This document shows, one piece after another, positions 2,385 through 9,112 of a DNA stretch of 64,000 bases. The DNA comes from Escherichia coli. GTDB taxonomy: Bacteria; Pseudomonadota; Gammaproteobacteria; Enterobacterales; Enterobacteriaceae. The translations under genes and the position numbers were made by a program. The notes below the pieces were generated by a model that searched no databases, was not told where the DNA came from, and worked only from the letters and a program-made list of their open reading frames with translations. The stretch is from assembly GCF_003334765.1 (NCBI RefSeq), contig NZ_QOWT01000002.1, one strand, 5' to 3'. How positions within the stretch are numbered: position 1 is the stretch's first letter; each line of letters opens with the position of its first letter.

Positions 2385-5300
2385 TTACCATTTCACCGTC
2401 ATCGACAAAAACCCTGCCGTCTGGGCAAAATCATCACTCCCTTTCTGCCACGCCACGCTGCCGCGCAGGGACACTCGCTGACTGATATTGCCCGTGACTC
2501 CCACTTTTATTTCACCCCGTTGCTTCACCGCATCGTCACTGATAGTGCTGCCATCCTCTTCAATTTCCGTCGAATGGGGATCGTGATAATAATTCAGATC
2601 TAATGTTGGTATGACATGAACAGCGGTACGCCATTCGCTGTGTAAACCCAGCCGCGTCTGAATATCATCACCCTGCGATTGTGACACGCGCGCACGGTTA
2701 GCGGCGGTAAAATCATCCTGCTGCACGCCCTGATAAATCACCTGCGCCTGCGGTTCAATCACCACACCACGCCCCGGTAACCACTGATACCCCGCCTCCA
2801 GCGAGGCGATAATCCCCGACGAGTGGTAATGATCTGTGCCATCTTCTTGTTCGGAAACATCATTGCTAAACCACGCGTATTGCAGCCAGCTATCCAGCCA
2901 GGCCCCTTGCTTCTGATTACCGTGCTGAAACCAGCTTGATGTCAGCCCAACGGCATAACCGTGGTTCTGGTTATCGGCGCGAGTTCCGGTCATATTCGAG
3001 CGGCTGTCGCCCTGGTTATCGCTGTAGCCACCAACAATCCCAAGCATCCACTCGCCATCCGTGCCCCAGCGCCCGCTAAACAGATCGCCGCTAAGTTGCA
3101 CCGTAGAAGTGTCTTCATGTTGAGCCAGTTGCCCCGCTGCTGTGTAATGATAATCTCCGCCGATAACACGTAAATTCAGCGTCTGACCATCGCCACCTGC
3201 GTGATCGCGTCGCTCCATCATAAACGCCTGATTTGCCGCCCGCAGGTTATTGAGATAACCGCCAACTTTGGCATTCAACACCGGCTGGTAAGCAGGCGTA
3301 GGTTCCGGGTCGGGTGTTGGATCAGGATCCGGCGTGGGATCGGGAGTCGGGTCTGGATCAGGTGGCGATGGCGGCGTTACTTCTTGCGATCGCAGATACC
3401 AGTCGTTGTTATCTTCCACCAGCGTGTAGTCATACGCTCCCATATTGACGTAGCCGCTGCCTGCCAGACTGAACTGCGCATTGTTTTGAAACTGCGTGGG
3501 ATCAGCTGCGAAATCAACCACTTTAATGCCTGTCGATGTCGGCTCACCAATCCCTGTAATGGAGTTAACCACCACAGTTGTGTTGCCAGCAGTATTACCG
3601 TTCATCACCAATTGATCGCTTACCGAGTCATCGCCGTTTAATTCGCTATCGAGCAGTAGCGTACCGCCGCCGGTATAATCACCGTTTACCGTCAGCGTAT
3701 CGCCAGCGACGCCATTTTGCAGGCTAACCGCACCGGACGTATTGGTCAGATTGCCATTAACCGTCACGTTGGAAAGATAAGTCAGGCTGTCAGTTTCAAG
3801 GTTGGTATTAAGCTCACCTGTCAACGTCACACCATCGGTGGCATTCACCAGCGTCCCATCGCCGTTAAATAGTGAGGCATTAAGGGCGACGGAAGTATCC
3901 TGCCCGGTCAGGCGCAAAACCGTACCATCGCTGATGTCGATAGTGCCGCTGGAAATAGCATCAATTGACTGAATATCCTGATCCGCGCCAGTAACGAACG
4001 TTGCCCCATCACCAACCCACAGTGACGAAGCATAAGGAAGGATATCAGCAACATCACCTTTCAGGGTGCCTTCTTCGACACGTACCGCCGACTGCGTTGT
4101 ACCGCTGGCGGTCAGCTCCAGTGTACCAGCCCCCGTTTTAGTCAATGTGCTACCCTCATCCTGATGCTGCCCGCTGCTGTCAGCCATCAGTGCGCCCCAC
4201 TGCGTGTCTACCCCCGCATCAACTGCCACTTCACCGTCGGCGCGCATTTCAATATCACGTCCGTGGCCTGCCGCATCTGAACGCGTGTCAACGTCGGAGG
4301 TAATCTCCATCACGCTTTCTTGTTGCTTATCGGTAAAGATAACCTGGCGGTTATAGTGGGTATCTCCAAGCTGCGAGTTGTCGCTCACCATCAGCGTACC
4401 GGAGGCGATTTGTGTTGTGCCCAAATAACTATTATTGTTTGCCAGACTTACCTGCCCGTCGCTCGCATCGACCACCACGTAGACGCCATCTTTCCCGTCG
4501 CCGCCGATATGCAAATTGTCGCCACCTGCAAGATCTACCACATCCTGACTGCCGATAACCGTTCCGCTGCTGCCACTGACTTCAAGGCCATCGTTGTATG
4601 ATGTGCCGCTCTGCCAGGTGGAGAAATCAGAGAGATCGAGCACACCGCCGTTTAACACGATCGACTGCGGATCGTCCTGGAGAGCGGTAAGATCTGCCGC
4701 GTCGCCTTCCAGCGAAAGCACCGCACCATCATCAACGACTATATCGCCGGTTAGCGCCATCGACTGCGCCCCTGCCAGCACGTAGCTGCCGTTTTGCGCA
4801 ATGGTGAGCTGACCAGCACCTTCGATGATGCCAGCAAAACTGCCCTGATTAACAGTAACGTTGCCACCAGCATCGATATTTAAAGTGCCATTCTGAAAGC
4901 CCGTCAATGCGTGCACAAAAGTTTGTTGGGTCGAGCCAACGTTTAGCTCAGCCTGATTCTGATACTGATCAATACTCCCTATCGTCAGACCGTAGCAGTC
5001 TTGCGGATCGTCCTGGCAATGCGTATCGCCGACATTCATCAGGGAGTTGCTGCGGCCCAGGGTAACTTCACCGTTTTCAATCTGCATCTCACCAGTAAAG
5101 TCATTGTTATCTGCATTAAGTACCAGATCGCCGGAACCTGTTTTGGTGATTAACCCGGTACCAGCAATAGAGTCAACAGCTCCGTCATTCTCTGTATTGC
5201 CAATAACCAGCGTTTTTCCGTCGGCAATATCAAAGGTAACTTCACTTAAGCCGAGATACATAAAGCCACCCGCCGCAGAGGAAGGACCATCTCCATAGCC

Positions 5301-6131
5301 TGCTGCGCTATTGTTCTCATCGACTAACACGCCTCCGTTCTGGCTGTAGCTGTCATCAACAGAAATATCAATAAGATAGGGAGCCGTCACGCTATTGGTA
5401 TATATCGCCCCGCCATAACCTTCGGCAGTGTTATTTGTAAAGGCAGTGTTATTTACTATCGTATAACCTGAAGGATGCTTGCTGTCGCTATTATTATCGG
5501 TAACATCGATTGCCCCGCCATCGCCATCACTGTAACTTGTTGATGTATATGCCTGGTTGTTATCAAAAATAACATCACTTAAATAAACGTCATTATTAAT
5601 GGTATAAATTGCGCCACCTTTGCCATCATTAGCGATGTTATTGCGAAACATGGCGTTAGTGACACGTAAATCGACGGCACCAGTATCGTTAGTACCAGAA
5701 GAATAGATTGCGCCACCATAGCCGCCTGCGACGTTACCGGAAAAAATAACATCAGTAAGATTCAGCGTTGAGTTTTCTTTAGCAAATATGGCCCCGCCGT
5801 TATTATATTCTCCTGTAACGGTGTTATTGGCAAACAGAGTCATTCCAGTTTCATTTTCTGGTAATAGTGAAAATTCCGCTCCTTGTTGCAAAAATACGGC
5901 CCCACCGCTGGCGTTATTGGTCATATCCGAAAAAACCAGCCATTGCCCATCAGCGATACTCCAGTCCTGCGTAATGCCTGAAAGGCTTTGCCTGCTGGCC
6001 TGACAACTCGCTTTGACATCATATCCCTGGCATGAATCAGTGACCGCCGCGACACCGTTAGCAGAGAAAAGAGATGCAATCATTGACGGGAGTAAAGATA
6101 AATACTCCTTGCGTAGAAAGATAATCCGCAT
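2385..6131 (-). CDS. yfaL: AIDA-I-type autotransporter adhesin (1248 aa in this window)
   Basis: Track ORF 2385..6131; signal peptide, long G/N/T-rich beta-helical passenger with repeated GGAIY motifs, Pro-rich PDPTPDP linker, C-terminal beta-barrel ending in W. Confidence 0.92.
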   Translation of the reverse strand: MRIIFLRKEYLSLLPSMIASLFSANGVAAVTDSCQGYDVKASCQASRQSLSGITQDWSIADGQWLVFSDMTNNASGGAVFLQQGAEFSLLPENETGMTLFANNTVTGEYNNGGAIFAKENSTLNLTDVIFSGNVAGGYGGAIYSSGTNDTGAVDLRVTNAMFRNNIANDGKGGAIYTINNDVYLSDVIFDNNQAYTSTSYSDGDGGAIDVTDNNSDSKHPSGYTIVNNTAFTNNTAEGYGGAIYTNSVTAPYLIDISVDDSYSQNGGVLVDENNSAAGYGDGPSSAAGGFMYLGLSEVTFDIADGKTLVIGNTENDGAVDSIAGTGLITKTGSGDLVLNADNNDFTGEMQIENGEVTLGRSNSLMNVGDTHCQDDPQDCYGLTIGSIDQYQNQAELNVGSTQQTFVHALTGFQNGTLNIDAGGNVTVNQGSFAGIIEGAGQLTIAQNGSYVLAGAQSMALTGDIVVDDGAVLSLEGDAADLTALQDDPQSIVLNGGVLDLSDFSTWQSGTSYNDGLEVSGSSGTVIGSQDVVDLAGGDNLHIGGDGKDGVYVVVDASDGQVSLANNNSYLGTTQIASGTLMVSDNSQLGDTHYNRQVIFTDKQQESVMEITSDVDTRSDAAGHGRDIEMRADGEVAVDAGVDTQWGALMADSSGQHQDEGSTLTKTGAGTLELTASGTTQSAVRVEEGTLKGDVADILPYASSLWVGDGATFVTGADQDIQSIDAISSGTIDISDGTVLRLTGQDTSVALNASLFNGDGTLVNATDGVTLTGELNTNLETDSLTYLSNVTVNGNLTNTSGAVSLQNGVAGDTLTVNGDYTGGGTLLLDSELNGDDSVSDQLVMNGNTAGNTTVVVNSITGIGEPTSTGIKVVDFAADPTQFQNNAQFSLAGSGYVNMGAYDYTLVEDNNDWYLRSQEVTPPSPPDPDPTPDPTPDPDPTPDPEPTPAYQPVLNAKVGGYLNNLRAANQAFMMERRDHAGGDGQTLNLRVIGGDYHYTAAGQLAQHEDTSTVQLSGDLFSGRWGTDGEWMLGIVGGYSDNQGDSRSNMTGTRADNQNHGYAVGLTSSWFQHGNQKQGAWLDSWLQYAWFSNDVSEQEDGTDHYHSSGIIASLEAGYQWLPGRGVVIEPQAQVIYQGVQQDDFTAANRARVSQSQGDDIQTRLGLHSEWRTAVHVIPTLDLNYYHDPHSTEIEEDGSTISDDAVKQRGEIKVGVTGNISQRVSLRGSVAWQKGSDDFAQTAGFLSMTVKW
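3296..3372 (-). repeat. in-frame Pro-Asp/Thr microsatellite-like repeat inside yfaL (encodes PPSPPDPDPTPDPTPDPDPTPDPEPTP)
   Basis: Plus strand shows iterated ggatc(a/g)gg / gggtc(g/t)gg units; translated linker between passenger and barrel. Confidence 0.75.
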
Positions 6132-6664
6132 ATTAATCTAACCATCATTTTCTATAAGACGGCGTATTTAATCGCATTATACGATATGGAATATCTTTCT
6201 TTTGTAAATTGTTCAACCCGGTGCAATGGCTATTTTGTTATTATTTGATGAATAATATCAGTGCGTCATAATTCAAGTTAATAACCTTCAGGGATATCAG
6301 TTATATTTAAACTAAATTAAAGTCATGAATAATTTTCTTATAATATAAGGTAAATTAACAAAATGGCTTAGCATTTAACAATAACCGAATAGAAAACAAC
6401 CATTTCGCCATCAACAATCTCTTACATTCGCTTATATATTGACCACAACTGATACATCAGATTATGTGATGACTCGTGCTTAGATCAATTTTTGCAATCA
6501 TTAGCAAAAAGATTAATAAACCATCTATATCAATTTATCTAACCTATTATGCCGTTCAAGAAATCGCCGAACAGTTATTTTTAACAAATTTTTCTCTTCC
6601 CATTGACTTTCCCGGACACCTTGTCTGACCTAAGGTGCGCGAAAGCCACTTTTTCCTTCCTGAG

Positions 6665-6673
6665 TTATCCACA
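6665..6673. promoter_or_regulatory. DnaA box (perfect TTATCCACA) upstream of nrdA
   Basis: Exact 9-mer ttatccaca at 6665..6673, about 160 bp upstream of the nrdA ATG; the nrdAB promoter is known to be DnaA-regulated. Confidence 0.7.
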
Positions 6674-6702
6674 AAGTTATGCACTTGCAAGAGGGTCATT
6701 TT

Positions 6703-6750
6703 CACACTATCTTGCAGTGAATCCCAAACATACCCCCTATATATAGTGTT
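6703..6750 (+). promoter_or_regulatory. two NrdR-box-like palindromes in the nrdA promoter
   Basis: cacactatcttgcagtg (6703..6719) and ccctatatatagtgtt (6735..6750) resemble the NrdR box (acaCwAtATaTwGtgt) and are about three helical turns apart. Confidence 0.6.
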
Positions 6751-6826
6751 CTAAGCAGCTTCCCGTACTACAGGTAGTCTGCATGAAACTATTGCGGAAA
6801 GAATTCCAAAAACAGGTACGACATAC

Positions 6827-9112
6827 ATGAATCAGAATCTGCTGGTGACAAAGCGCGACGGTAGCACAGAGCGCATCAATCTCGACAAAATCCATCGCGT
6901 TCTGGATTGGGCGGCAGAAGGACTGCATAACGTTTCGATTTCCCAGGTCGAGCTGCGCTCCCACATTCAGTTTTATGACGGTATCAAGACCTCTGACATC
7001 CACGAAACCATTATCAAGGCTGCCGCAGACCTGATCTCCCGTGATGCGCCGGATTATCAGTATCTCGCCGCGCGCCTGGCGATCTTCCACCTGCGTAAAA
7101 AAGCCTACGGCCAGTTTGAGCCGCCTGCGCTGTACGACCACGTGGTGAAAATGGTCGAGATGGGCAAATACGATAATCATCTGCTGGAAGACTACACGGA
7201 AGAAGAGTTCAAGCAGATGGACACCTTTATCGATCACGACCGTGATATGACCTTCTCTTATGCTGCCGTTAAGCAGCTGGAAGGCAAATATCTGGTACAG
7301 AACCGCGTGACCGGCGAAATCTATGAGAGCGCCCAGTTCCTTTATATTCTAGTTGCCGCGTGCTTGTTCTCGAACTACCCGCGTGAAACGCGCCTGCAAT
7401 ATGTGAAGCGTTTTTACGACGCGGTTTCCACATTTAAAATTTCGCTGCCGACGCCAATCATGTCCGGCGTGCGTACCCCGACTCGTCAGTTCAGCTCCTG
7501 CGTACTGATCGAGTGCGGTGACAGCCTGGATTCCATCAACGCCACCTCCAGCGCGATTGTTAAATACGTTTCCCAGCGTGCCGGGATCGGCATCAACGCC
7601 GGGCGTATTCGTGCGCTGGGTAGCCCGATTCGCGGTGGTGAAGCGTTCCATACCGGCTGCATTCCGTTCTACAAACATTTCCAGACAGCGGTGAAATCCT
7701 GCTCTCAGGGCGGTGTGCGCGGCGGTGCGGCAACGCTGTTCTACCCGATGTGGCATCTGGAAGTGGAAAGCCTGCTGGTGTTGAAAAACAACCGTGGTGT
7801 GGAAGGCAACCGCGTGCGTCATATGGACTACGGGGTACAAATCAACAAACTGATGTATACCCGTCTGCTGAAAGGTGAAGATATCACCCTGTTCAGCCCG
7901 TCCGACGTACCGGGGCTGTACGACGCGTTCTTCGCCGATCAGGAAGAGTTTGAACGTCTGTATACCAAATATGAGAAAGACGACAGCATCCGCAAGCAGC
8001 GTGTGAAAGCCGTTGAGCTGTTCTCGCTGATGATGCAGGAACGTGCGTCTACCGGTCGTATCTATATTCAGAACGTTGACCACTGCAATACCCATAGCCC
8101 GTTTGATCCGGCCATCGCGCCAGTGCGTCAGTCTAACCTGTGCCTGGAGATAGCCCTGCCGACCAAACCGCTGAACGACGTCAACGACGAGAACGGTGAA
8201 ATCGCGCTGTGTACGCTGTCTGCTTTCAACCTGGGCGCAATTAATAACCTGGATGAACTGGAAGAGCTGGCAATTCTGGCGGTTCGTGCACTTGACGCGC
8301 TGCTGGATTATCAGGATTACCCGATCCCGGCCGCCAAACGTGGAGCGATGGGTCGTCGTACGCTGGGTATTGGTGTGATCAACTTCGCTTACTACCTGGC
8401 GAAGCACGGTAAACGCTACTCCGACGGCAGCGCCAACAACCTGACGCATAAAACCTTCGAAGCCATTCAGTATTACCTGCTGAAAGCCTCTAATGAGCTG
8501 GCGAAAGAGCAAGGCGCGTGCCCGTGGTTTAACGAAACCACTTACGCGAAAGGGATCCTGCCGATCGATACCTATAAGAAAGATCTGGATACCATCGCTA
8601 ATGAGCCGCTGCATTACGACTGGGAAGCTCTGCGTGAGTCAATCAAAACGCACGGTCTGCGTAACTCCACGCTTTCTGCTCTGATGCCGTCCGAGACTTC
8701 TTCGCAGATCTCTAACGCCACTAACGGTATTGAACCGCCGCGCGGTTACGTCAGCATCAAAGCGTCGAAAGACGGTATTTTGCGCCAGGTGGTGCCGGAC
8801 TACGAGCACCTGCACGACGCCTATGAGCTGCTGTGGGAAATGCCGGGTAACGATGGTTATCTGCAACTGGTGGGTATCATGCAGAAATTTATCGATCAGT
8901 CGATCTCTGCCAACACCAACTACGATCCGTCACGCTTCCCGTCAGGAAAAGTGCCGATGCAGCAGTTGCTGAAAGACCTGCTCACCGCCTACAAATTCGG
9001 GGTCAAAACACTGTATTATCAGAACACCCGTGACGGCGCTGAAGACGCACAAGACGATCTGGTGCCGTCAATCCAGGACGATGGCTGCGAAAGCGGCGCA
9101 TGTAAGATCTGA
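6827..9112 (+). CDS. nrdA: class Ia ribonucleoside-diphosphate reductase alpha subunit (761 aa)
   Basis: Track ORF 6827..9112; [33 protein letters not shown]... with ATP-cone N-terminus and catalytic-site cysteines; full-length match to NrdA. Confidence 0.97.

Follow-up and report, generated by a model that had tools for sequence, protein, structure and literature searches.

NrdAB is the essential aerobic ribonucleotide reductase of Escherichia coli, and the Escherichia nrdAB promoter is a textbook case of the control of dNTP synthesis by DnaA. Through this promoter, E. coli couples dNTP supply both to replication initiation (via DnaA) and to the dNTP pool (via NrdR). The nrdAB literature, including the papers of Augustin in 1994, Jacobson and Fuchs in 1998 and Olliver in 2010, reportedly also describes Fis and IciA sites, a third, DnaA-ATP-specific box, and a 45-bp inverted repeat. 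At nrdAB, DnaA-ADP or a low level of DnaA-ATP helps RNA polymerase and a high level of DnaA-ATP represses, and Fis and IciA are cited as further regulators (PMC8203912). DnaA ChIP-seq revealed a 14-fold peak at nrdA that was assigned to gTTATCCACAaagTTATGCACTt, and mutation of either DnaA box disrupts DnaA binding (PMC11317965). Repression of nrdAB by NrdR through boxes in the promoter is established (PMC12176259), and binding of HusR (YnfL) to the nrdA upstream region is supported by a gSELEX peak and a gel shift (PMC12844172). The yfaL/ypaB region is listed as promoter island 2342143_534, with H-NS binding "according to all studies" (PMC3661553).

The stretch of DNA analysed here (64,000 nucleotides; hereafter the window) contains this same locus, as defined by the following features.

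6132–6826, no strand assigned: yfaL–nrdA divergent intergenic region (the spacer), 695 bp, 33.7% GC, bounded by ORF limits
2385–6131, minus strand: yfaL (ehaC), AIDA-I family autotransporter adhesin gene, ORF start at 6131
6827–9112, plus strand: nrdA, class Ia ribonucleotide reductase alpha subunit, ORF start at 6827
6132–6550, no strand assigned: distal AT-rich module, a promoter island, 27.9% GC, Escherichia-specific and H-NS-bound
6551–6826, plus strand: proximal module, the ancestral nrdA regulatory region as judged from alignment, 42.4% GC, alignable across Enterobacterales

A sequence-only reading of the window had described a 695-bp AT-rich spacer between divergent yfaL and nrdA; its coordinates are exact, both genes were correctly named, and the GC content is indeed low compared with 51.3% for the whole window, the bin 6001–6500 having the lowest GC among the 128 500-bp bins. 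The spacer was found in all 5426 complete E. coli genomes and matches E. coli chromosomes carrying the yfaL/ypaB/nrdA annotation at 100%; the RefSeq annotation of the identical sequence was taken from E. coli B. Relative to the E. coli K-12 nrdAB promoter region, with its nrdAp, double DnaA box, NrdR boxes and Fis/IciA/H-NS/HusR inputs, no difference was seen, and the allele in the window is the common one, in which a 13-bp leader segment is present and the ypaB ATG is intact. Comparison with mapped nrdAB elements, which that reading had proposed, places the published NrdR oligonucleotides and the DnaA ChIP motif in the spacer base for base. The nrdAB control region and the H-NS-silenced yfaL stretch are thus published E. 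coli biology that is already known, and their recognition adds nothing by itself to the picture of nrdAB regulation.

The locus is very probably the E. coli yfaL–nrdA divergent control region, composed of two modules with different histories. Across 80 Enterobacterales loci, nrdA retains 91–100% amino-acid identity, and in most genera it is immediately preceded by ubiG. Of about 70 informative loci, only those of Escherichia and three others have yfaL between these two genes. The spacer has no homology upstream of about 6551 to the ubiG–nrdA spacer of other genera. Identity to E. albertii is 34–60% per 50-bp bin in the distal module and 90–98% in 6582–6730. In most genera, yfaL and the distal tract are both absent between ubiG and nrdA, which is the pattern of a horizontally acquired gene. 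Comparison with 76 Enterobacterales loci thus resolves two modules: 6132–6550 is Escherichia-specific sequence that arrived with yfaL, and 6551–6826 is the ancestral nrdA control region.

The distal module, acquired together with the yfaL adhesin gene, is coated by H-NS and dense in promoter-like hexamers. Nine sigma70-like hexamer pairs were found in it (3.8 ± 2.2 expected), all within 6181–6488, and the U00096.2 coordinates of the promoter island convert to about 6083–6617 of the window, assuming that the nrdA ATG is at 2342887. One or more normally silent yfaL promoters are presumed to lie in this module, and a single candidate can be named.

6181–6208, minus strand: candidate yfaL promoter TTTACA-16-TATCGT, the consensus match closest to the yfaL ATG, predicted from the scan

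Because the same consensus scan of the spacer missed the nrdA promoter, its −35 TTGCAA included, it is no reliable guide to the position of the yfaL promoter; the literature was also searched for mapping of this promoter and for direct H-NS work on yfaL, with no useful result.

Work from the Fuchs laboratory is cited as reporting that upstream AT-rich sequence is needed for nrd cell-cycle regulation, so that the distal module may not be purely yfaL-related and may play a role in nrdA control. A fuller version, in which the distal block works as an upstream element for nrdA and holds the cell-cycle control element of that laboratory and the 45-bp inverted repeat, is possible but on the whole doubtful. 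A candidate imperfect palindrome does lie at about 6480–6519 (core 6489–6510), and bins 6432–6531 are 92–96% identical between E. coli alleles compared with 74–88% for 6182–6431. However, the block can hardly be aligned even to E. albertii and has no counterpart in the many genera with ubiG directly before nrdA, and the candidate hairpin is weak (z = −1.2 for the DNA fold of 6470–6530).

The proximal module contains the nrdAB promoter, its leader, and several conserved or protein-binding elements.

6555–6566, plus strand: conserved upstream block TTCAAGAAATCG, with AAGAAATC at least 80–95% conserved in 77 aligned sequences
6599–6610, plus strand: conserved block around ATTGAC, preceded by a T-run and followed after 13–14 bp by CCTT (6620–6623)
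6612–6627, plus strand: HusR (YnfL) binding sequence CCGGACACCTTGTCTG (PMC12844172, Table 1)
6647–6662, plus strand: second HusR-type sequence CACTTTTTCCTTCCTG (PMC12844172, Table 1)
6685–6690, plus strand: probable −35 hexamer TTGCAA of the nrdAB promoter, placed from the sequence and from the NrdR box (box 0, below) that covers the −10 and transcription start
6717–6826, plus strand: nrdA 5′ untranslated leader, about 110 nt, start approximate
6795–6807, plus strand: 13-bp leader segment CGGAAAGAATTCC, missing from a divergent E. coli allele
6811–6822, plus strand: ribosome-binding region (ACAGGTA), conserved across genera

At least 95% of the 77 sequences retain TTGAC and CCTT, and at least 95% of aligned sequences retain CTTGC (6684–6688). 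The nrdA transcription start is taken here to lie 110 bp upstream of the ATG, as reportedly mapped by Tuggle and Fuchs in 1986, which agrees with a start site covered by box 0. The probable arrangement is thus a sigma70 promoter that would have its −35 near 6685–6690 and its −10 and start site inside 6702–6717. A scan of 5900–7100 against Rfam gave no match at E ≤ 1, the RNA fold of the 110-nt leader is no more stable than those of shuffled sequences (z = +0.25), and a terminator scan of the spacer found none. The HusR sites lie upstream of the double DnaA box; Fis and IciA are further regulators of nrdAB. The earlier expectation that the AT-rich remainder leaves room for more regulators is borne out by the HusR sites (PMC12844172), H-NS and the promoter island (PMC3661553), and Fis and IciA (PMC8203912).

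Immediately upstream of the promoter are two DnaA boxes.

6665–6673, plus strand: DnaA box 1, perfect consensus TTATCCACA, a 9/9 match to TTATNCACA and part of the ChIP-seq double box
6677–6685, plus strand: DnaA box 2, TTATGCACT, 3 bp past box 1, abutting or overlapping the −35

DnaA box 1 had been reported from the sequence at exactly this position, and it is bound by DnaA in ChIP-seq as half of the double box, the published motif corresponding to 6664–6686 (PMC11317965). The two boxes form a direct repeat, TTATCCACA-aag-TTATGCACT, with 12-bp spacing. Although TTATCCACA at 6665–6673 is the sole perfect copy in 64 kb, one perfect box in a window of this size is not beyond chance; the non-random feature is the tandem pair, for which box densities give an estimated expectation of about 0.002 per window. 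The idea that the DnaA box and the NrdR-like palindromes are functionless chance matches in AT-rich DNA can appeal to the 29 of 100 window shuffles that hold at least one perfect DnaA box and to the absence of enrichment of relaxed DnaA-box patterns in the window. Its probability is nevertheless negligible: it has already been refuted by published ChIP-seq and binding data (PMC11317965; PMC12176259), the DnaA boxes are in tandem with the preferred 3-bp gap, the sites are invariant across E. coli alleles, E. albertii and locus L016, and an NrdR box (box 1, below) is kept in about 75 species. The double box abuts the −35, and it is here that bound DnaA-ADP or low DnaA-ATP is reported to aid RNA polymerase and high DnaA-ATP to repress.

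The same segment is annotated on the opposite strand as a small gene.

6556–6699, minus strand: ypaB, a 47-aa ORF in the RefSeq annotation, overlapping the DnaA boxes and the −35

The sequence-only reading had found no convincing small ORF in the spacer, and this scepticism was reasonable given that the ypaB ATG is CTG in the divergent E. coli allele (1100 records in its identity band) and that Trp20 is replaced by an in-frame stop at codon 20 in E. albertii. The divergent allele carries no ypaB annotation. By these comparisons, ypaB is not maintained as an ORF even within Escherichia. A real small-protein gene, whose coding constraint would account for the conservation of 6580–6700, is nonetheless suggested by the naming of ypaB in most E. 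coli genomes by RefSeq, by a "ypaB" RT-qPCR signal that rises in stationary phase in a HusR-dependent manner (PMC12844172), and by the fitness defect caused by CRISPRi guides against ypaB (PMC6242692). The authors of the CRISPRi study attributed that defect to a block of the nrdA promoter, explaining that "ypaB contains the promoter of nrdA" (PMC6242692). The best-conserved stretch, LQVHNFVDNS, is the reverse translation of the double DnaA box and recurs in phage P1 inside otherwise different ORFs, and an NCBIfam search with YpaB and two other spacer ORFs gave no meaningful match (none for YpaB at E ≤ 1). Together with the loss of the start codon and the internal stop, these observations make a coding explanation very improbable. 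ypaB is probably not a functional protein gene, and its annotation is best treated as a promoter-overlapping ORF of doubtful reality.

Three NrdR boxes lie downstream of the DnaA boxes.

6702–6717, plus strand: NrdR "box 0", TCACACTATCTTGCAG, the classical upstream box, covering the −10 and transcription start; 10/16 consensus, not high-affinity
6734–6749, plus strand: NrdR box 1, CCCCTATATATAGTGT; 14/16 consensus, member of the high-affinity pair
6765–6780, plus strand: NrdR box 2, GTACTACAGGTAGTCT, 15 bp past box 1; 10/16 consensus

The high-affinity NrdR operator consists of box 1 and box 2. The oligonucleotides used in the binding study map exactly to 6697–6754 (box 0+1) and 6729–6785 (box 1+2), for which the KD of NrdR is above 6000 nM and 113 nM, respectively (PMC12176259). 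Both box 1 and box 2 have C4 and G13 of the 16-bp, partially palindromic box. Box 1 is the most conserved element of the region (about 75 species) and one of two matches in the window to the NrdR consensus at three or fewer mismatches (0.39 expected). Box 2 is Escherichia-specific, with a mean of 9.75/16 in Escherichia compared with 7.1/16 at the same position in other genera.

In the classical model, NrdR acts via 6702–6717 and 6734–6749, so that the repressor occupies the −10 and start site and keeps polymerase from binding; between 2005 and 2025 the published assignment was this one (Rodionov and Gelfand; Torrents 2007, as quoted in PMC12176259 and bioRxiv 2026.05.11.724285). The linker between boxes 0 and 1 has the canonical 16 bp, and that between boxes 1 and 2 has 15 bp (6750–6764), so that spacing of 15–16 bp is found in both pairs. 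Mutation of the homologous upstream box in Salmonella raises nrdAB expression (PMC2892513). Boxes 0 and 1 are invariant between two E. coli alleles, and the conservation of box 0 is explained by its overlap with the −10 and transcription start, which it covers (bioRxiv 2026.05.11.724285). The affinities given above weigh heavily against this model, as does an earlier gel shift in which mutation of box 0 was without effect (PMC12176259). Moreover, box 0 has C rather than A at position 6, and restoring the A increases NrdR affinity 10-fold (bioRxiv 2026.05.11.724285). Action through boxes 0 and 1 is therefore unlikely. The sequence-only reading had proposed two NrdR palindromes within 6703–6750: 16-mers do exist there and 6734–6749 is a high-affinity site, but 6702–6717 binds very weakly and box 2 was missed. 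For annotation, the functional operator is 6734–6780, not 6702–6749. NrdR shuts nrdAB off when deoxynucleotides are plentiful.

Homology of the nrdAB regions of Salmonella and most other Enterobacterales to that of Escherichia begins about 275 bp before the ATG. The upstream blocks, the −35 CTTG, NrdR box 1 and the ribosome-binding region are common to Escherichia and the other genera, in which the likely promoter is TTGTAC-16-TAGAAT and the upstream NrdR box is better (12/16). The placement of the DnaA boxes differs. Of 72 other Enterobacterales species, 70 have a perfect DnaA box directly against the 3′ end of NrdR box 1, in the transcribed leader; an inverted DnaA box follows about 30 bp further on in 65 of the 72, and none has a well-matching DnaA box ahead of the −35. 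The perfect box is often followed, after 3 bp, by TTAGYCACA. Escherichia has the reverse layout, with the DnaA boxes upstream of the promoter and with NrdR box 2 in addition; its relatives show only 6–7 of 9 matches where Escherichia has the double DnaA box.

These comparisons leave an even chance that the Escherichia DnaA layout does not represent the enterobacterial norm but arose by rewiring in that lineage. It is equally open to belief and to doubt that the Escherichia leader DnaA boxes decayed, the spacer between them now supplying NrdR box 2, and the balance is no different for the origin of the strong double DnaA box upstream of the −35 within Escherichia. In the literature searched, no statement of such a rewiring was found; the Salmonella paper has a figure marking DnaA boxes (PMC2892513). 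DnaA placed in the leader would be limited to repression, to blocking elongation or to competition with NrdR, and if the rewiring is real, the activating side of the DnaA switch would be new in Escherichia. The difference in DnaA-box placement between Escherichia and nearly all of its relatives would matter for generalising the model of DnaA–ribonucleotide reductase coupling. Two related ideas were examined. Remodelling of the promoter together with yfaL insertion was rejected because the yfaL-bearing species at loci L052 and L059 retain the ancestral promoter layout. The leader DnaA inverted repeat of the other genera was also considered as an RNA hairpin; its arms beyond the DnaA 9-mers are without visible co-variation in the alignment, which favours DNA-level DnaA sites.

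Beyond nrdAB itself, the two modules resemble three described systems. The distal module is on the list of 78 E. coli promoter islands of Panyukov and Ozoline (2013) (PMC3661553), and shares with them dense promoter-like signals, occupancy by H-NS and association with a presumably foreign gene; unlike them, it lies directly beside the promoter of a housekeeping operon that is essential and highly regulated. The second likeness is to phage P1.

6574–6703, plus strand: segment common to phage P1 and P1-like plasmids, containing both DnaA boxes and the −35

This segment (about 130 bp) is 94.6% identical in many P1-like plasmids. In P1 itself, it corresponds to the hot–upfN intergenic segment, for which a RefSeq note records two predicted DnaA boxes and 56 bp that are 94% identical to the E. 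coli region. Unlike in E. coli, no nrd gene follows in P1, and the likeness stops at the −10 region. Finally, the double DnaA boxes at polA, purH, mioC, DARS1/2, datA and nrdD likewise consist of two direct 9-mers with a 2–3 bp gap, one of them a perfect TTATCCACA, and, like that at nrdA, are bound in vivo (the Wade-laboratory ChIP-seq class; PMC11317965). The nrdA pair differs from these in that the perfect box is the upstream member, in that the pair abuts the −35, and in that DnaA is reported to act there as both activator and repressor, depending on its nucleotide state (PMC8203912).

The spacer at 6132–6826, between the divergent yfaL and nrdA genes, is the published E. coli nrdAB promoter/operator together with a published H-NS-bound promoter island belonging to yfaL, and is already known. 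The flanking genes are as follows (window ORF list; products by RefSeq annotation of an identical copy):
2385–6131, minus strand: yfaL ORF, 1248 aa, AIDA-I family autotransporter adhesin
6827–9112, plus strand: nrdA ORF, 761 aa, class Ia ribonucleotide reductase alpha subunit

At exactly 695 bp and 33.7% GC (window, 51.3%), the spacer agrees with the coordinates and the AT-richness given in the sequence-only reading. GC content is 27.9% in the distal module (6132–6550) and 42.4% in the proximal module (6551–6826), and the lowest value among the 128 500-bp bins of the window is that of 6001–6500. A second extended low-GC stretch at ~44500–51000 (bins of 0.36–0.40 GC) points to a further region of horizontal origin or H-NS type. 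Megablast of 6132–6826 matched the spacer in 5426 of 5426 complete E. coli genomes, several at 100%. Overall, the observation made in the sequence-only reading was confirmed. Its interpretation is supported too, once the functional NrdR pair is corrected and the ypaB annotation is added.

The DnaA site of the proximal module consists of two boxes:
6665–6673, plus strand: DnaA box 1, TTATCCACA, perfect, the sole perfect copy in the window
6677–6685, plus strand: DnaA box 2, TTATGCACT, 3 bp downstream of box 1 in the same orientation (direct repeat)

The perfect box had been noticed from the sequence, and it lies within the double box published from ChIP-seq (PMC11317965). Alone it is not significant, because at least one perfect box occurs in 29 of 100 shuffles of the window and looser DnaA-box patterns are not enriched within the window. 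The chance expectation for a tandem pair, estimated from motif densities, is ~0.002 per window; the specific feature of the site is the second box beside the first, not the lone perfect match. DnaA ChIP-seq gave 16 bound regions, one of which is nrdA (14-fold enriched); its motif, gTTATCCACAaagTTATGCACTt, maps to 6664–6686. Genome-wide, 13 of 32 perfect boxes are bound and pairs are preferred, and mutation in either nrdA box disrupts DnaA binding (PMC11317965). According to a review (PMC8203912), DnaA-ADP or a low level of DnaA-ATP stabilises RNA polymerase at nrdAB and a high level of DnaA-ATP represses; Fis and IciA are mentioned there as further regulators, together with a third box that is specific for DnaA-ATP. 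Elsewhere in the window, a consensus-class DnaA box (TTATTCACA, 1474–1482) lies a few bases ahead of position 1487, where the listed 256-aa ubiG ORF starts.

Three NrdR boxes are located downstream of the DnaA site:
6702–6717, plus strand: NrdR box 0, TCACACTATCTTGCAG, upstream member of the classical predicted pair
6734–6749, plus strand: NrdR box 1, CCCCTATATATAGTGT, 16-bp linker from box 0, shared by the classical and high-affinity pairs
6765–6780, plus strand: NrdR box 2, GTACTACAGGTAGTCT, 15-bp linker from box 1, placed via published oligonucleotides

The nrdA transcription start, which we take to be ~110 nt upstream of the ATG, near 6717 (after Tuggle and Fuchs, 1986), agrees with the placement of box 0 over the −10 region and transcription start in a 2026 preprint (bioRxiv 2026.05.11.724285). 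The pair proposed from the sequence at 6703–6750, i.e., classical boxes 0 and 1, is present, but the functional pair is box 1 with the newly recognised downstream box 2: the KD of NrdR-ATP-dATP is above 6000 nM on boxes 0 and 1 and 113 nM on boxes 1 and 2, as tight as on the nrdHIEF and nrdDG operators (2025 study, PMC12176259). The oligonucleotides of that study match the window base for base at 6697–6754 (boxes 0 and 1) and 6729–6785 (boxes 1 and 2). The poor binding of box 0 is explained by a C at position 6, and the C6A substitution increases affinity 10-fold (bioRxiv 2026.05.11.724285). Because the −10 region and start fall in box 0 and the high-affinity pair lies downstream, the high-affinity operator is wholly inside the early transcribed region, at roughly +18 to +64 for a start close to 6717. 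Rfam gave no family match in the spacer region, and the predicted fold of the nrdA leader RNA is no more stable than that of shuffled sequence.

An annotated ORF overlaps the DnaA boxes and the probable −35:
6556–6699, minus strand: ypaB, 47 aa (RefSeq annotation)

In the second major E. coli spacer allele (L002; ~90% identical over the spacer, in an identity band of 1100 records), the ypaB ATG is CTG (window 6696–6699) and ypaB is unannotated; the E. albertii sequence has a stop at codon 20. YpaB has no NCBIfam family match, and its best-conserved stretch, LQVHNFVDNS, is the reverse translation of the double DnaA box and recurs on P1-like plasmids in otherwise unrelated ORFs. For these reasons the annotation is probably spurious and ypaB not a functional protein gene. 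The absence of a convincing small ORF, as read from the sequence, was thus a reasonable judgement, since the ORF is kept in neither L002 nor E. albertii; the annotation nevertheless exists. In addition, a 13-bp piece of the nrdA leader (CGGAAAGAATTCC, window 6795–6807) is missing from L002, whose NrdR box 2 begins with TC, not GT.

The E. coli genome search also matched 235 places on plasmids, which are P1-like elements. The copy corresponds to 6574–6703, including both DnaA boxes and the −35, and similarity stops at the −10 region (L004, a P1-like copy, 3001–3115); identity is 94.6% in many copies and ~78% in others. The copy is carried by phage P1 and by some 300 P1-like plasmids. In P1 (NC_005856), the copy lies at 86399–86454 (L085:1622–1677), between hot and upfN, and the similarity is already recorded in this reference genome, annotated as '94 pct identical to Escherichia coli DNA region containing two predicted DnaA boxes'.

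An NrdA search yielded 80 Enterobacterales loci, each with 3 kb of upstream sequence. In most genera, ubiG is directly upstream of nrdA in the same orientation, ~355 bp away, and yfaL separates the two genes only in E. coli, E. albertii and three further loci. Alignable homology of E. coli to other genera starts near 6551, and E. albertii identity per 50-bp bin is 34–60% over 6132–6480 versus 90–98% over 6582–6730. The sequence upstream of ~6551 is specific to Escherichia and fast-diverging, and the spacer therefore joins two modules. Of the 77 aligned Enterobacterales sequences, nearly all retain the ancestral-module elements listed below; the other best-conserved elements of this module are NrdR box 1, the ribosome-binding region and the CTTG of the −35.
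6558–6565 (within 6555–6566): conserved block AAGAAATC
6601–6607 (within 6599–6610): T-run then ATTGAC, overlapping a reported HusR site
6620–6623: CCTT, 13–14 bp after ATTGAC, overlapping a reported HusR site

HusR (YnfL), a LysR-type factor, has a binding peak between ypaB and nrdA (gSELEX, gel-shift, RT-qPCR; PMC12844172), and its candidate sites were located in the window:
6612–6627: HusR candidate site CCGGACACCTTGTCTG
6647–6662: HusR candidate site CACTTTTTCCTTCCTG

In the distal module, a simple sigma70 scan found nine promoter-like hexamer pairs (3.8 ± 2.2 expected), all within 6181–6488 and on both strands. 'Promoter island' entry 2342143_534, yfaL(−)/ypaB(−), one of 78 in E. coli, is flagged as foreign-gene-associated and H-NS-bound in all ChIP studies examined (PMC3661553); by our coordinate conversion it corresponds to approximately 6083–6617. 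The yfaL promoter must be located in this AT-rich stretch; the literature search found no mapped yfaL transcription start, and the consensus match nearest yfaL is a candidate only:
6208–6181, minus strand: candidate yfaL promoter

In E. coli strain 23CRST009, IS1A is inserted at the yfaL-proximal spacer end (L003:1054–1751, ~window 6185), and its yfaL is a pseudogene by annotation, carrying an internal stop. The yfaL passenger domain (yfaL, 2385–6131) is highly polymorphic (L002, L005 and L006 compared): over the first 500 aa, two E. coli alleles share only 79% identity, and identity is 72–73% with a further E. coli representative (L005) and with E. albertii. This block of polymorphism reaches into the spacer as far as ~6450.

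The layout of DnaA boxes differs between Escherichia and other genera. In the leader (L007–L083, approximately −100 to −40 from the nrdA ATG), 70 of the 72 species outside Escherichia have a perfect TTATNCACA directly abutting NrdR box 1 on its 3′ side. A box in inverted orientation, TGTGGATAA with at most one mismatch, follows ~30 bp further downstream in 65 of the 72. In the four Escherichia-type sequences, the double DnaA box is upstream of the −35 (E. coli 6664–6686), and the leader boxes have decayed to TTCTAAGCAG and TGCATGAAA, between which NrdR box 2 sits (window 6750–6790). Agreement with the NrdR consensus at the box 2 position is 9.75/16 in Escherichia and 7.1/16 in other genera. 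The upstream NrdR box scores 10/16 in E. coli and is better, at 12/16, in other genera, which also keep a probable TTGTAC-16-TAGAAT promoter that is absent from E. coli. Promoter remodelling as a by-product of yfaL insertion was rejected, because two yfaL-bearing loci (L052, L059) have the ancestral layout. The literature search found no description of this difference, as far as the sources were available; a figure in a Salmonella paper (PMC2892513) marks DnaA boxes. There is about an even chance that the Escherichia placement of DnaA boxes, and with it the activating side of nrdAB control by DnaA, represents a lineage-specific rewiring of an enterobacterial promoter that is otherwise very uniform.
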